This document shows, in pieces, positions 2,880 through 31,215 of a DNA stretch of 64,000 bases. Positions within the stretch are counted from its first letter, which is position 1. Each line of letters starts with the position of its first letter. The notes beneath the pieces are model-generated. The model saw only the letters and a program-made list of their open reading frames with translations, was not told the origin of the DNA and searched no databases. The position numbers and the translations under genes are program-made. The DNA comes from a phage: sequence record PZ242158.1; one strand, given 5' to 3'.

Positions 2880-5303
2880 ATGAGCATGTGGTCGTTCGAT
2901 TTTGAGTCATCCGGTTTGCTGGAAGACCCAGATCTTTATTATCACTGCGGCCTGTTTAAAGAGCTGAATAAGAACCGTTTTATGCTGTTCCTTCCTCTGA
3001 ATGACCGCACACACTACTCCGAGGAGGATATAGAGAAGGCCAAGAACTTTATTCTGGCAAAGAAAACTCTTTATAAGGATTTTGAAGTTCGCATAGCAGA
3101 TTTTTCGGAGTTGGAAGGTTGGCTTACAGGAAATTCCGACTGGTCACCAACAGCTTTGAACTGCCATAACTGCTACAGTTATGACTTTATGCTGATGGAG
3201 AGATTATCCGGTATTCATTTTGATATGTTCCGTGATCCTAAATGCATGGGGACTATCAACGACCACCAGGTTAACCTGTTTGATACGTTGGCTATGAGCC
3301 GAATCTTGTGGCCTGATCGCCCTTTACCAAAAGGTTGTCCGGACGCTGTATTCAACCCGGTTACTAAGAAAATGCAACCTGTTGGTCCTCACGGCCTTAT
3401 GGCATGGGGCTACGCCCTTGGTAACCAGAAAGTTCAAATTGATGACTGGCGCGATCTTCCGCTGTGGAAATATGTGGATCGTGTGTTCGAGGACGTTATC
3501 ATCCAGGAGTTGCTCTGGAAAGAGTTGGTAGCGGAATCAAAAGGTGTATTCTACGGCAAATCTGACATGCAGAACTTTATGTATGACCCTGCCAAAGAGA
3601 AGCCTAAAGGATTCAAGAAGATTACCTGGAAGAATGCATTACGCCGAGGCATGCTGCAGCATTTCCTGATGGAGCTGCAGGCTCGACAGGGTGTGTATTT
3701 CGACATAGATGGGGCTATTGCTTTACGTGACCGCTGCGATGCGTGGATGAAAGAGATCGCTGATCGTGTTGAACCACAACTTCCTTTAAAAGAGTTATCA
3801 ATGTCTCAGCGGCCTAAGTTCCCTGAAAAGCCGTTTAACCAGGATGGGACAATCTCCAATAATGGTTGGAAATGGTTAAAAGACAAGCTTGGCTACCCTG
3901 TGGACATGAGTGCTTTAGAATTCAAAGCTCCTCCTAAGCGAGCATTTACCTCCACAGGAGATGTCAGTAAGATGGGGATAAAATGGTGTGAAGAGATGGG
4001 CTGTAAAGACCCTGACAAGATGGCGGATTTCTTGAGGGGCTATATCAAGGGCACCTCCACACCACAACCTTTACCTAAAGAGCTAATGGATCAGGCAATA
4101 AGTGATCTACAGCAGAAGCGAATGCCTGACTGCAAGATACCTATGAAAATCAGTAATCAGGACGATATTAAGCGATACCTGATCAGTGCTGGTTGGCTTC
4201 CGACAATGTGGAGAACTAAGGATGTAACTAAAGACAGCAAGAAGAAAGCTCTACCTGATGCAGATGTTGATGCACGAGTGTATGCATATATGGACGAGCT
4301 TTTAGAGTCAGAGTATTGTGACCTAATTATCAACTTCTGGAACAAAACTGATGCTAAGTTCCAGACAACCGTGCACAAGTTCCGAAGCTTTCCTAACTCC
4401 GAAAGGATTAAAAAGGAAGTATTCGGGAAAATACGTAGAAAAGCTAGGGCACTTATTACTTCTCCGCAACTGAAAGATACGTTTGGACACCTATGCCCGA
4501 ATCTTGAAAAATTGAACGGAGAGATGGCTAAAGATATCGTCTTGTGGTTATCATTGCGAAACCGCAGATCGGTCCTTGATCCAATCAAGGAGGATAAGGT
4601 TGATACTGGTCTTCTTAATCACCCACGTTTGAAGATTGACCATAAGCTTCCTGCTAAAAGTTCTGGATTAACAAACACTTCCCGACAGAAACACAGTATT
4701 TGTGCAAACATGCCTAAACCATCTCCTAAAGTGGTTATGGGTAAAGAGATGCGTAGTCTGTGGGGTGTTCCTCCAGGATACTTTGAGATCGGTATTGACG
4801 GGTCCAACTTAGAGCAGCTTATCGGGGCTTGGGGTGCCTTTGAGTTCGACAACGGCCTGTATTACGATGTTGTAAGTAACGGGGACGCACACCAAAACAA
4901 TGCTGAGGCATATACAAAAGTAGCAGGTAGAGAGGTGTCTCGTAACGACGGTAAACCTATCACGTATGGGGTTATGTATGGGGCACAAAAAGATAAAGTT
5001 GCAGATATGCTGGACATCTCTCCAGAGTTGGGACAAAGGGTAATCGATGCACTCTGGGATGCCAACCCTGGTCTTAAGGGGCGTAAAGAAGATCTGGAGA
5101 AATTCTGGGAAGCAACGGGTAAGAAGTTTATCTACTCTTTTGATGGTCATGCTATCTGGACCCGATCTAAACACTCTTTACTTAATGCATACCAACAAAA
5201 TGGCGGCGCATCGTTGTGTGACTTAGTTGGGATACTCATGCACCATCAAATGGTGAAGCGTGGGTGGTACGATGAAGGTGTTCGTCGTATTATCTATTAC
5301 CAT
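2880..5303 (+). CDS. DNA polymerase, family A, exon 1
   Basis: AAGGAG RBS; exo motifs FDFESSG and HNCYSYD; motif B KPITYGVMYG; ORF stops one codon after the His where motif C (HDE) is expected. Confidence 0.8.
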
Positions 5304-25389: not shown

Positions 25390-25653
25390 ATGAAACGCCT
25401 TGATCAGCTCAAATTAGTTCAATATATGGCTTATCGTGTTCTTGAAGTCCAGAAAGGTAGCAAAAAAGAGGTTTGCGAGAAAGCTTATAAGATCTTCACT
25501 CGCAAAAAAGATGACTGGATGCTACGCCAGACCAAAAAGGCTGACATCTTGGGGTACCTGGAAGAAGAGATCCGACTTGAAGAGCAAGAAGAGATCCGCC
25601 GTAGTGAGGCAGATTATCAGGCAGCTTGGGAAAACTGGATGAGCAACAAATAA
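25390..25653 (+). CDS. hypothetical protein
   Basis: AAAGAGGAAAAACATC RBS. Confidence 0.55.
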   Translation: MKRLDQLKLVQYMAYRVLEVQKGSKKEVCEKAYKIFTRKKDDWMLRQTKKADILGYLEEEIRLEEQEEIRRSEADYQAAWENWMSNK

Positions 25654-25796: not shown

Positions 25797-26216
25797 ATGA
25801 ACATTAAATCTAATAATCCGGCATATAGCTTTGATAACGCTTTTTGTCACGGTCCGGCGGCGAAAGGATTCGAAATCGATGGTAAACTAATTATTGTCAA
25901 TGTTGACGGGGAAGAGGTTGCAGTATATCCGGTGGCAGACGTAAAAAGCCGTTTACAATGCCGCATGGATGTTACCGCCTATCAGCTTGATCCGGTCCGC
26001 ATAGTTGCCCTGGTCCTGGAAGAAGAAATTAAAGCCATGCACCATAGCAACAGGTTTATTGGTGACGCTCAGGATAATATGAAGGTGTGCCGCCATAAAG
26101 TTAATGAAGTGCTTAAAGAGTACGGCTATAAAGATCTTATGATCAAACGTGATGAAAAATTCCGGTACCGTAACGACCTGGCAAATCGGATTTTTGAAAT
26201 ATACGAATCATTATAA
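25797..26216 (+). CDS. hypothetical protein
   Basis: AAGAGGTAAAAACACC RBS; last + strand gene before the non-coding switch. Confidence 0.55.
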   Translation: MNIKSNNPAYSFDNAFCHGPAAKGFEIDGKLIIVNVDGEEVAVYPVADVKSRLQCRMDVTAYQLDPVRIVALVLEEEIKAMHHSNRFIGDAQDNMKVCRHKVNEVLKEYGYKDLMIKRDEKFRYRNDLANRIFEIYESL

Positions 26217-26234
26217 TTTTTTAACTGAATTATC

Positions 26235-26259
26235 AAGGGGCTTAGGTCCCTTTCTTTTT
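26235..26259 (+). terminator. putative rho-independent terminator
   Basis: AAGGG...CCCTT stem followed by TCTTTTTG. Confidence 0.45.
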
Positions 26260-26859
26260 GTCTGCTCTTCCTCCCTACCATAAACGGCCCTACCTGGCAA
26301 GTGGAATAATTGACGAGCCATCAATCCCACACACTGTACAAATATACATGTAAAATAACTATTGCATAACCTTTCATTGTGTGGTAGCGGTGCTATTTTT
26401 ACCCGTTTTCCTTCCAAAATTGCACGTAATGCAGCTATTGCACAAAATTTAACCTGATGCGCATCTTCAATATCTTGTCAACAACTAAAAATCTTTATAA
26501 GTCATACACTTACACAAACCAAAAAGCGTGTTCTACGTGAAAAATCGAGTATAACTATAGCCGACAGATCTCAGAATTTACGTACGCTCACCATTCTATA
26601 GCCTGCTAAGTATTTATTCCGACCATAGAATAACAGAATAGTCAATACCTGCATAAAATAATTATTCGTTTAAATTGCATAACATAAATCAGCTCAGGTG
26701 TCAACATTTTTCGTAAACAGTCTGAAATTGTCACGGCAAGTTATCATAATCAGAGAAATCTTTAGTCGTCTAATGTTTACTGTACGTTACTATACTAACT
26801 GGAATCATTAGATGACTAATAGAAAGATAAGAAATAATTAACAATACAATTATTTTATC

Positions 26860-27045
26860 TGTAACAATAAGGCAACTATGCAAACGAATGGCATGGCGCG
26901 ACGGAGTCGCGACATAATATAAAAGCAGTAACCATCACCCCCGTGATAGTTTGTCTGCAATCTATTAATCAGATCATAGTTGCCTTGTATTTAGTTAATC
27001 ATGACATAACAAGCAAGGCAACTATAGATCTTCTAATAGTTGCCC
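26860..27045. repeat. iteron-like cluster (AGGCAACTAT / ATAGTTGCC in both orientations)
   Basis: At least four copies within ~180 bp plus duplicated ATGCAAACGAATGGCATGGC and palindrome CGCGACGGAGTCGCG in an AT-rich ORF-poor region. Confidence 0.5.
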
Positions 27046-27284
27046 TGCTTTTATATTATGTCATATATTATTAACTTGTTAATTGTTAGTCAGTCAAATC
27101 AACAGCGTTATCATTTCAGTCTTTATTGTTGTTGATCGTTATTGTTATCATGCAAACGAATGGCATGGCTTATCATCTCTGTATAAACAGTTTATGCGTG
27201 AACAGTGAGGCATGCAATAGTAACAATTGTTATTGTGTCATCATGTCAAGGGTAAAGTGTCATAGTATGTCAGACATGTTTTTC

Positions 27285-28277
27285 CCCTCTTTGTCAAGTG
27301 CTGCATGAAAAAATTTACAAGCTGGTATGGTAGCATTTTTGCGGCCTTGTTTACATTCAGGAGTGTATGTATAATCCTTGTTGTGTGGGCGTTTATACGT
27401 CTGGACGGTCAGAAGTCTGCAGGTTAATATCTAATCTATTGGCTGCTAACTATATCCCACACAAATGATAAGAAATATAATTGTTATATGCGTAAACTGT
27501 AACTCATGTTATCAATCCCTGTATGTATCGCCAGTGGTGCGCATAATGGGTATTATGTTAAATTGCCCGTAATGATAACAGTTCTCACAATGATAGGTAT
27601 TCTCATTCATCCACACAAAATAGGTTGCAAATGTTGTGCCACTGTGTGAACGGCCTGGCCTATTAATTTCTCTCACTGCCTCGATATTTGAGAATTGTTA
27701 TAAGAATGAGAAGTATCCATGTTTATATTACATCTACTTGGTTCAGAACCAAAATGCGCGAAAGCGTTTCACGATAACTAGCGACCACGGTCTGTTCCCT
27801 GGCGGCCATACGGCTTCTACTGAACGCAGCAGAGGGCGATAATCCCCTCTTTGTCAAGTGCTGCATGAAAAAATTTACAAGCTGGTATGGTAGCATTTTT
27901 GCGGCCTTGTTTACATTCAGGAGTGTATGTATAATCCTTGTTGTGTGGGCGTTTATACGTCTGGACGGTCAGAAGTCTGCAGGTTAATATCTAATCTATT
28001 GGCTGCTAACTATATCCCACACAAATGATAAGAAATATAATTGTTATATGCGTAAACTGTAACTCATGTTATCAATCCCTGTATGTATCGCCAGTGGTGC
28101 GCATAATGGGTATTATGTTAAATTGCCCGTAATGATAACAGTTCTCACAATGATAGGTATTCTCATTCATCCACACAAAATAGGTTGCAAATGTTGTGCC
28201 ACTGTGTGAACGGCCTGGCCTATTAATTTCTCTCACTGCCTCGATATTTGAGAATTGTTATAAGAATGAGAAGTATT
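27285..28277. repeat. tandem direct repeat: two near-identical ~430-bp copies (about 27285-27717 and 27845-28277) separated by ~128 bp
   Basis: Long stretches read identically at a ~560-bp offset; each copy contains promoter-like TTGTTT-17-TATAAT. Confidence 0.7.
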
Positions 28278-28410
28278 CCCATTCCGTCCGCCTGGCAGCG
28301 CTCCTGTAGGTCCTGCAAGGACTCTAGCTTTCAGCTAGACCCTTCGGGCCTCCCTACAGGTCAGGTCAAAATCGTGGTAGAATTGGGCCTATTCAGATAT
28401 TTCTGGCTGA

Positions 28411-28952
28411 CTCTTCAGGTCTGTGTGGGAAAAGCCAACCTCTCCGGCGGGGCAGGGGGAGGTCAATTAAAAAATTTACGTGGTGTATGAAGCGCTCTTC
28501 AGGTAAGGCAGGTATTATGGGATGAAACCCTCTTCAGGCAATGATATTTGTGGGTGTGATATTTGCTGGAAAGCCAGATATGACGGGACTCCCGGCGGGG
28601 CAGGGGTAGTACAGACAGGGAAAATATGAGAATGTAGTTGGGGAAATTGATCAGACAGGTAGAGTATGGAATATGTTACAAGTATGTTAAATATGGAGGT
28701 TGAATATCTGTAGGATTTGTGTGTAAAATCAAAGACTTAAGGGGTGTTGTGATATTTTCTATAAATAATTCAAGTTTAATAGGTGATATTTGTCTCTATC
28801 CGCTTTGTGTGGTAAACAGATTCAGATGAGATTGGTTTACAAGTGTATACATAATATACAAATTAAAGATACAAGAAACCCCCCATCCCCCTTCGGCTAC
28901 CATTCACCTTTTCCTCTGACTGGTACTTAAACACTTATTCAGACTCTTCAGG
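28411..28952. repeat. cluster of CTCTTCAGG boxes (4 copies; a 5th near 29594) and duplicated CCGGCGGGGCAGGGG
   Basis: 9-mer recurs at ~28411, 28495, 28530, 28944 within non-coding DNA; also long inverted repeat CCTGTAGG...CCTACAGG at ~28300-28360. Confidence 0.5.
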
Positions 28953-29304
28953 TTATCACCCATATATCATATGGCAGTGACTGGTGTCCTCCGGCCCCTC
29001 TTTCGTCACCCGTCCGCTTCGCCATGCTAATGCCATAGCCAATGGTTCGGTTGTTCACCCTGTTCACTCAGGTGTATCTCCATACCCCTTCAAACCGAAG
29101 AGAACAGAAAACCCGAATTACTCGGTAAAAGAAAAGAGAAGAACTTAATTTTATCAGGATAGGCAAGAATGTCAAGGCATGACTGCTCACTAAACAAGCA
29201 AACAGTCATGTGTGGGAGGTAAGTGATTGTGGTGGTGGGAAATTTAGTTGAAAGATGTGTTATAGGTGCGCTTCCAGCACTTTAGCCGGGCAGCTAATTG
29301 TGTG

Positions 29305-29520
29305 TCAGTCCAGTGGTTCATCACCTACTTCACTGAAATCAATGTTCATGGTCTCCTCCCAACCATCAATCTCAGCACCAGAGTAGAGATCTTTAGGACT
29401 TACTCCCAAAGCATCAGCAACAGAGTCCATATTTAACACCTCTGGCAGGTATGATTCATCGAATTCAAGGTAAATCAGGCCACGAGTGTTGTCAGCTCCA
29501 CCAAATATTTCTATCTTCAT
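29305..29520 (-). CDS. small acidic protein
   Basis: First gene of the minus-strand array; Asp/Glu-rich; no domain. Confidence 0.5.
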   Translation of the reverse strand: MKIEIFGGADNTRGLIYLEFDESYLPEVLNMDSVADALGVSPKDLYSGAEIDGWEETMNIDFSEVGDEPLD

Positions 29521-29641
29521 GAAATCTCCTCTGGAAATGAGAGTGTGAACAGGGTTTTATACGTTCCGATGCACAGGAATTATGCACGTTTGCCTCTTCA
29601 GGCCATGCTTTAGCATGAGGAACCTGTGTGGGCTCGGTGCT

Positions 29642-29854
29642 TCATAGTCTACCACCCCTGAACTCTTCGTGCTCAGGCATAATAGAGAACCAGATATCTA
29701 CGATGTCTTCCCACGTTAGGTCATCAGCCTCAGGATCTACCTGGAGCGAAGATGGAGAATCTTCAGAATCTAAGTTTTCCTCTTTCACTGGCTCAGCCAA
29801 GGGACATATAGTCACTCCTTTGGATGTCTCTTCAGATGCATGTGTGTTTATCAT
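29642..29854 (-). CDS. small acidic protein
   Basis: Start overlaps upstream stop (ATGA). Confidence 0.5.
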   Translation of the reverse strand: MINTHASEETSKGVTICPLAEPVKEENLDSEDSPSSLQVDPEADDLTWEDIVDIWFSIMPEHEEFRGGRL

Positions 29855-29940
29855 GTTCCACCCGTGAGTATTCCGGCAACAGCCGCTATGGACGTAATGA
29901 TCATCAGGATCACCACTAAAACTTCGGACAATGTTCTCAT
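29851..29940 (-). CDS. small hydrophobic peptide (29 aa)
   Basis: GGAG RBS; MRTLSEVLVVILMIITSIAAVAGILTGGT; stop overlaps next start. Confidence 0.4.
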   Translation of the reverse strand: MRTLSEVLVVILMIITSIAAVAGILTGGT

Positions 29941-30161
29941 TGTGTACTCCATATTCTACAAACTATGTGTGGATACTATCACTGGATCGGTAATGTGTCA
30001 ACAGAAACGCCGCGAGGGTTTGGTTAAAATCCGAGCGTATGGTGATTTGGGTCAAAACGGACGTGCGTTCTCGCTACGCTCGAAATATGGAGTTGTTTGT
30101 AGGGAGCTCTTAAACGCTCTGTAATGAGATTAACTGCCCAAGGTATGCAATCGTGCACCAG

Positions 30162-30909: not shown

Positions 30910-31215
30910 TTATTCTACAGAGCGTTTGAACAGAATGTCTGCCTCGGACATGTGCTCAACCTCTTCTTCGATTTTAGCTCGACGTTTTTCAGCCTCATAG
31001 CGAATATCGAACTCGGTAGCCACCAGAGATTTGATGAATTTAGGAGAATACAGGTGATCCTGCTTCTCAACGAGAATGATATCCTTAATGGCATCTTTCA
31101 GATCTTTAATCTGAAGTTGGAGTTCCACCAGTTCTTCGATTGTCTTGCGAAGGCGATCACGCTCTGCAGTGTCAGAAGGAAGAGAGGTGAACAGTTCAAC
31201 TTTAGATTTAGCCAT
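30910..31215 (-). CDS. coiled-coil protein
   Basis: Charged heptad-like sequence; no domain. Confidence 0.5.
   Translation of the reverse strand: MAKSKVELFTSLPSDTAERDRLRKTIEELVELQLQIKDLKDAIKDIILVEKQDHLYSPKFIKSLVATEFDIRYEAEKRRAKIEEEVEHMSEADILFKRSVE

Follow-up and report, generated by a model that had tools for sequence, protein, structure and literature searches.

The DNA analyzed here, referred to as the window, is the 64,000-nucleotide stretch of record PZ242158.1, and all positions are window positions. Over the 3.1 kb around the region of interest it is 92-98% identical to 122 phage records, nearly all of them Vequintavirus, and on nucleotide similarity the phage is a Vequintavirus, an rV5-like myovirus of E. 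coli. Phages of the rV5 type are common broad-host-range coliphages and are in use for typing and in therapy cocktails. Nineteen records labeled 'Campylobacter phage' (MG0656xx) are 91-98% identical to E. coli vequintaviruses over the region; their host label is doubtful, and both of the two that we examined are marked UNVERIFIED. In the ORF map of the window, plus-strand genes stop at 26216 and minus-strand genes end at 29305. The ORF-free gap between these convergent gene blocks (26217-29304) contains the genome terminus and is documented by ORF maps, by the annotations of relatives and by two publications (PMC3606486, PMC6658697). Annotated relatives share the convergent gene layout around it, and the genome map in the rV5 paper draws the gap as a 'non-coding' box between genes 163 and 164 (PMC3606486). 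A search for a host origin of the region gave no match among 5,426 E. coli genomes. Positions 28280-29300 are the first kilobase of unique DNA inside the terminal repeat (DTR), reaching the stop codon of the last leftward gene; placed against the mapped repeat, the region is the gene-free subterminal arm of the Vequintavirus chromosome, running from 29305 to 28292|28293.

Three papers, one of them PMC6658697, give the terminal redundancy of vequintaviruses as non-permuted and 458-459 bp long, and a non-coding gap with a 458-459-bp redundancy is described for rV5, LL12, EdH4/HdK5 and Gotham. We placed the DTR boundaries by mapping the 459-bp PhageTerm repeat of LL12 onto the window. This yielded a right-end copy at 27273-27716 on the plus strand, corresponding to LL12 DTR positions 1-443 at 93.7% identity with the last 16 bp replaced by adapter, and a left-end copy at 27843-28292, also on the plus strand, corresponding to positions 11-459 with the first 10 bp missing. 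The two contain an exact 434-bp duplicate (27283-27716 and 27843-28276) whose copies stand 126 bp apart. The 126-bp spacer (27717-27842), an adapter remnant that joins both physical ends, had no match in the phage records or E. coli genomes searched and aligns over 37 nt to the Mu transposon-end oligo of transposase library kits; its ends resemble what we take to be a nanopore adapter sequence. Relatives carry one DTR copy without the spacer, and the spacer edges lie no more than 10-16 bp off the boundaries given by the LL12 mapping. Given that adapter lies between two DTR copies, the source assembly ran across both physical ends, and the extra 560 bp that it contains are artefactual.

The terminal base of the bov11CS3 record aligns to 28293, and the inner DTR boundary, 28292|28293, is by alignment the terminase cut site. 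The DTR begins, when read on the minus strand, with GGCGGACGG in the window (28280-28292) and with GACGGACAG in the Klebsiella phage KPP-1 (extracted segment 3810-3830), so that GNCGGAC is common to both at the cut site. The block TGTGCTAGACGGACA around the DTR start is invariant in four Mydovirus and Seunavirus genomes and may represent a conserved terminase cut site. With the LL12 repeat mapping to both ends and an adjacent non-coding arm, the phage is by alignment to be placed with those that have T7-type short-DTR ends. The original prediction, made from the letters of the window, had offered a packaging or terminase site as one role for this region, which is reasonable as the region adjoins the genome terminus. 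It had also offered a regulator-binding region for the minus-strand operon; here the geometry is unfavorable, since the arm lies 3' of both convergent gene blocks and is therefore not an upstream control region of that operon.

The stretch that directly adjoins the DTR, 28293-29304, holds no conserved ORF and no PHROG match. None of the 8 ORFs tested in the region matched a PHROG, indels in relatives break its reading frames, and a 54-aa ORF shows 1 synonymous against 4 non-synonymous changes (manual codon assignment). A protein-coding gene is not supported, given these frame-breaking indels, the lack of a family match and the lack of synonymous bias, which upholds the earlier description of the region as non-coding and motif-dense. 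APCEc02 annotates two tiny ORFs at ~28374-28640 (record segment 2398-2671), one of them as 'structural protein'; these overlap the boxes described below, have poor start sites, are not conserved and are probably gene-caller noise. Searches of the whole 64 kb for structured RNAs gave no Rfam match at the gathering score and only four chance-level matches at E <= 10, none of them inside the region, so the covariance-model search that had been proposed came back empty for the region even at that threshold. ARAGORN found no tRNA or tmRNA.

Five copies of the 9-mer CTCTTCAGG lie within 28411-29602 (at 28411, 28495, 28530, 28944 and 29594), all on the plus strand. The window as a whole holds 8 copies, every one on the plus strand, compared with 0.47 +/- 0.67 in shuffles, and five copies are indeed far above chance, as had been claimed, with ~0.5 expected per whole window. 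The remaining three (46756, 53646 and 54513) read CCT GAA GAG (Pro-Glu-Glu) in frame within minus-strand ORFs and look like coding background. In one relative, with a complete genome of 134,946 bp, the count is 7, and 5 of these fall within the same 1.2-kb cluster. All five boxes are kept in 17 relatives, where mismatches occupy 3 of 765 box cells compared with 103 of 3162 cells in the +/-20-nt flanks. Counting variable columns is the fairer measure, being less inflated by the shared ancestry of the relatives, and it gives 3/36 in boxes versus 37/146 in flanks.

As features of the arm we read the boxes on the minus strand. Box 1 (28411-28419) sits within the 17-mer GACCTGAAGAGTCAGCC (28405-28421), which matches KPP-1 3498-3514 at 16/17 positions and is preceded on the minus strand by CCACACA at 28422-28428. 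CCACACA itself is frequent throughout the gap and its edges, with 10 copies (repeat counted once) on both strands in the ~3 kb from 26327 to 29972 and 14 in the other 60 kb. Boxes 2 and 3 (28495-28503 and 28530-28538) both lie inside the 20-nt repeat TTRCCTGAAGAGSGYTTCAT at a 35-bp spacing that is constant in relatives; the spacing between boxes 1 and 2 shifts by 18-76 bp. Box 4 (28944-28952) is inside a near-invariant block, and box 5 (29594-29602), with the 12-mer palindrome ATGCTAAAGCAT (29605-29616) beside it, is intergenic, between the last two minus-strand genes. Several readings of the box were considered and dropped. Relatives do not conserve the promoter-like hexamers that surround boxes 3 and 5, and the boxes were not retained as -35 elements or plain promoter parts. 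By eye, a hammerhead core (CUGANGA) or an anticodon loop lacked supporting helices and any model match. KOPS (GGGNAGGG) showed no enrichment, with 7 in the window against 4.84 expected. An 87-aa protein encoded on the plus strand at 25390-25653 is labeled 'DNA translocase FtsK' in relatives; it has no Pfam FtsK domain, and the label looks unfounded. Farther along, 30910-31215 (minus strand) encodes a 101-aa protein of PHROG 639, 'transcriptional regulator', with relatives at 42-58% identity in five other genera, and this protein is a candidate reader of the conserved DNA motifs.

One way to read the array is as a packaging signal, in which the boxes and the invariant block would bind the small terminase subunit or another maturation protein and so position the DTR cut, on a model like cosB of lambda or pacL/pacR of SPP1. 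We regard this as possible, although unlikely. Conserved, co-oriented short boxes in a region that adjoins the cut site are what it calls for, and these short elements are found again beside the DTR of KPP-1, a phage of another genus with unrelated flanking genes, where the cut-site sequence GNCGGAC is shared and packaging is T7-type by PhageTerm. The spatial arrangement fits it poorly, however: the boxes spread over 1.2 kb, the spacing of the first two drifts, variability within the arm peaks in the 100 bp adjoining the cut, the invariant block stands 600-950 bp away from the cut, and no box is present on the opposite side of the DTR. Since box 5 sits in a genuine intergenic spacer of the leftward operon, a role in transcription or at the RNA level fits better than a purely terminus-bound one.

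Between the last leftward gene and the boxes nearest the terminus lies a putative sigma-70 promoter, TTGACA - 16 nt - TG-n-TAAAAT (TGaTAAAAT), on the minus strand at 29175-29148, which matches the consensus at 11/12 positions and has an extended -10. It points toward the terminus and is the last of the minus-strand series, with no gene behind it. Promoter-like sites of at least 11/12 number 19 in the 64-kb window compared with 1.6 in shuffles; the 8 plus-strand sites all precede 26216 and the 11 minus-strand sites all lie at 29175 or beyond, so that 19/19 are co-oriented with local genes. This census supports the rV5 paper, in whose view much of the genome is served by the host polymerase. The most divergent relative, an IMG/VR contig, keeps both promoter hexamers unchanged while its spacer carries 9 substitutions and has grown from 16 to 18 nt. 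Hexamers, spacing, conservation and orientation all agree with a sigma-70 promoter.

The predicted transcription start (~29141) coincides with the start of the near-invariant block, a stretch of ~250 nt at 28885-29141 that would form a leader or ncRNA on the minus strand and that holds box 4. Its identity per 50 bp is 0.98-1.0 in the 17 relatives compared with 0.81-0.99 in flanking genes, and 83 of 118 records reach at least 99% identity over it. The 101-aa protein is identical in ~115 records with synonymous change in its gene, and the block is conserved more than that gene. The few substitutions in the block are confined to predicted loops, and one abolishes the AUG of the only short ORF with a plausible ribosome-binding site, a start lost in 4 relatives. 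A weak hairpin with a U-run occurs only 16-40 nt past the predicted start, we found no terminator at the 3' edge of the block, and the stretch that follows (28620-28880) is AT-rich and more variable.

These features invite the reading that the block is the gene of a trans-acting regulatory RNA, a phage small RNA that would act on host or phage targets and whose location at the terminus would be incidental. The credible promoter directly upstream, nucleotide invariance above that of coding DNA with no conserved ORF, and the confinement of rare substitutions to predicted loops agree with such a gene, yet fold z-scores are not significant (for 28870-29141, -0.70 on the minus and -0.41 on the plus strand; sub-blocks, -1.8 to +1.2), Rfam offers no match, there is no clear 3' terminator, and searches found no DNA homolog outside the genus for either the arm or the block. 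The relatives, moreover, are too similar over the block for a covariation test. We consider a regulatory RNA gene of this kind doubtful. The ncRNA genes of the original prediction are plausible in one place, 28885-29141 on the minus strand; the structured-RNA part of that proposal finds no support from Rfam, tRNA searches or folding.

A replication origin, at which the promoter transcript would form an R-loop in AT- or G-rich DNA and prime synthesis as at T4 and ColE1 origins, would draw on the same order of promoter, conserved block and AT-rich 28620-28880, and the plus strand is G-rich at 28400-28800 (GC skew +0.40). Over that interval, though, the transcript from this promoter would be C-rich rather than G-rich, which disfavors stable R-loops; DnaA and IHF sites are not enriched and the arm has no iterons. 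Host-factor sites in the 2.5-kb gap are at background density (Chi 0, DnaA-like 1, IHF-like 1, Fur 7-1-7 0). We judge an origin here to be very improbable.

Toward the cut site the arm contains two modules, each combining a box with a GC-rich element followed by (U)UGGCUUU(U)CC. The GC-rich 15-mer CCGGCGGGGCAGGGG is duplicated, as had been noticed at the outset, with copies at 28444 and 28592; copy 2 is conserved, and copy 1 varies with its GC hairpin kept. Module 1 (28429-28464, minus strand) holds copy 1 and consists of a GC hairpin, kept in relatives, followed by UUGGCUUUUCC, a terminator-like arrangement. Its stem alternates between GACCUC/GAGGUU and CCCCUCC/GGAGGGG among relatives, with dG of -8 to -16 kcal/mol on the minus strand. 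Combining a GC stem, compensating changes and a U-run on the minus strand, module 1 is reasonably read as a putative intrinsic terminator for leftward transcription. Module 2 (28586-28609, minus strand) has a degenerate GC box, CCGGCGGGGCAGGGG copy 2, followed by CUGGCUUUCC; it is 98% conserved and its hairpin is weak (-7 to -9 kcal/mol).

The long hairpin singled out by the original prediction lies closest to the cut, in a hypervariable insertion/deletion site at 28297-28362. It is a stable branched structure on the plus strand (dG -29.5 kcal/mol, z = -3.9), so the stability of the predicted fold holds; the outer 8-bp stem of the long inverted repeat, however, is private to this phage, and conservation across the hairpin is 37%. 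In relatives that share the insert, two copies of CCTGTAGG form a direct repeat on either side of it; the insert is absent from other relatives. Positions 28306-28360 and 28460 are indel hot spots, with hairpin-forming inserts of 18-76 bp that differ among relatives. On its other arm the gap has further inverted repeats: 26830-27090 contains nested inverted repeats with an 18-nt perfect pair (26911-26928 and 27045-27062) and four copies of ATAGTTGCC arranged as two inverted pairs.

Closer inspection of other genera revealed the same layout in DNA that does not align to the window. KPP-1 (Mydovirus), for which T7-type packaging has been reported by PhageTerm, has a 514-bp repeat at 116,316-116,829 within a 1.8-kb gene-free gap between convergent genes, and the Seunavirus phages PVP-SE1, 4MG and GAP31 have matching gaps at 70-77% identity to KPP-1. 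The proteins flanking these gaps are unrelated to those of the window, and the 101-aa gene was tried and rejected as a synteny anchor, gene order being different. Short elements recur nonetheless, namely the 17-mer (16/17), GCCTCTTCAGG, TGTTATTGTGTC, a similar C-rich/GGAGGG hairpin and the palindrome ATGCTAAAGCAT, the last in the gaps of both KPP-1 and PVP-SE1. All four phages have a conserved promoter aimed at the DTR, and the 17-mer is part of it (TTGACC-17-TATTCT, as in KPP-1, or TATGCT); in the window the -35 of the 17-mer has decayed to CAGACC. In KPP-1, GAP31 and 4MG, CCTGAAG(A/T)G occupies the loops of terminator hairpins and also the promoter spacer immediately after the -35, and PVP-SE1 carries the terminator-loop form. 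In these genera CCTGAAGAG forms the loop of the terminator GGGAGCCTGAAGAGGCTCC-TTTTCTTTT and, in cassettes that separate small genes, it also comes after the -35 of the next promoter. Because CCTGAAG as a bare 7-mer occurs commonly in the coding DNA of these phages, and the CCTGAAG part of the DTR-facing promoter spacer is replaced in 4MG and PVP-SE1, the cross-genus case rests on the longer matches and the shared layout. Scanning IMG/VR with the 17-mer returned 26 matches, about chance by a rough estimate and only one from a relative, and an IMG/VR search through the flanking proteins retrieved only 3 relative loci. As further observations on these gaps, CACACAA, similar to CCACACA, precedes terminator hairpins, and KPP-1, PVP-SE1, 4MG and GAP31 share a 21-nt inverted pair 164 nt apart whose complementarity is kept through between-genus changes; with TGATAAnnnTTATCA palindromes this pair (extracted segment 4639-4960) is comparable to window 26830-27090.

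The occurrence of the same motifs in ordinary terminator-promoter cassettes between small genes could mean that the arm has no function, and consists of what remains of small early genes, since lost, and of their intergenic cassettes, retained by chance or linkage. The degenerate look of module 2 and of the 17-mer would suit such an origin. Neutral decay is contradicted by the conservation pattern, however, with boxes conserved above their flanks and a non-coding block more conserved than the neighboring genes in 118 genomes, and we find this explanation scarcely credible.

Our preferred reading, which we hold tentatively, makes the arm a gene-free transcription unit and a zone of cis signals directed at the genome end. 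Read on the minus strand, its elements come in the order promoter, invariant block, AT-rich spacer, modules, the conserved short elements CCACACA and the 17-mer GACCTGAAGAGTCAGCC, variable insert and cut site. Host RNA polymerase would start at the promoter at 29175-29148, transcribe the ~250-nt invariant leader, the AT-rich variable stretch and the two modules of CCTGAAGAG box and GC hairpin, and terminate at 28464-28429, where the hairpin and U-tract lie ~140 bp short of the terminase cut site. Co-oriented and sequence-specific, the CCTGAAGAG boxes would act as signals for a factor working on DNA or on nascent RNA. The product of such a unit would be a non-coding RNA, and the unit would also stop leftward-operon transcription from crossing the terminus; it might assist in processing the ends, a part that transcription signals play at the concatemer junction of T7.

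We favor this transcription-unit reading because the promoter keeps its hexamers across a diverged spacer and combines an 11/12 match with the TG, because the invariant block begins at the predicted start and exceeds in conservation the gene of an invariant protein, and because the boxes are co-oriented and conserved above their flanks. The compensating changes that preserve the module 1 hairpin, with its U-tract on the minus strand, add to this, as do the layout and DTR-facing promoter shared by KPP-1, PVP-SE1, 4MG and GAP31. It is weakened by the missing terminator at the 3' edge of the block and the weak hairpin and U-run so soon after the start, by the poor module 2 hairpin, the decayed -35 of the 17-mer and the replaced spacer in 4MG and PVP-SE1, and by the unconserved promoter hexamers at boxes 3 and 5. 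For a plain leader, 250 nt of invariance with no detectable stable fold is unusual. Transcript data for any vequintavirus were not found in the literature searched.

A bolder proposal is that the ~250-nt block represents a new class of phage ncRNA, or that the CCTGAAGAG boxes are polar signals for a machine entering from the chromosome end, which could be a packaging motor, a nuclease or a polymerase. We see this as a long shot; if true, the arm would be a dedicated end-control module common to the Vequintavirinae. The gap and the repeat are already published; the passages and literature searches covered here yielded no account of boxes, promoter, invariant block or cross-genus elements. Five boxes, one covarying hairpin, one promoter and a 250-nt block are here located beside the cut site as elements under selection. 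This list narrows where a packaging signal or a new phage RNA could be sought, and the 250-nt block, conserved beyond the surrounding genes, is the unexplained part most worth experiment.

In kind, the arm is another example of repeat-rich, gene-free DNA beside short terminal repeats, as in T7. The T7 ends comprise a 160-bp terminal repeat, flanking short-repeat arrays (SRL/SRR), the phiOR promoter and a pause site at the concatemer junction, and the two systems share a short DTR, gene-free flanks with short-repeat arrays, a promoter facing the repeat and a pause or termination signal before the cut. They differ in that there is no sequence similarity, a host sigma-70 promoter replaces the phage RNA polymerase promoter, and the vequintavirus flanks measure ~1 kb and lie between convergent operons; a link between transcription and maturation would hold here by analogy. 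The lambda cosB R-sites and the SPP1 pacL/pacR boxes are terminase recognition arrays, which the arm resembles in having several short co-oriented boxes near a terminase cut site, and from which it departs in the spread of its boxes over 1.2 kb, their variable spacing and the hypervariable DNA nearest the cut. As RNA, the box (CCUGAAGAGG) resembles the loop and stem-closing pairs of the lambda nut boxB hairpin (GCCCUGAAGAAGGGC), and in KPP-1, 4MG and GAP31 it makes a 7-bp hairpin, GGAGCCU-GAAG-AGGCUCC. Among the 5 window copies, boxes 3 and 5 alone form at least 3 bp (3-4), the loop has 4 nt rather than 5, and a lambda-type nut site was rejected on reading the sequence, the 5-bp stem and GNRNA pentaloop not being present at every copy. 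Module 1, with its GC stem and U-tract, is like E. coli Rho-independent terminators, and the 11/12 match with TG makes the window's promoter like those read by E. coli sigma-70; unlike the usual E. coli promoter/terminator pairs, these two bracket no gene.
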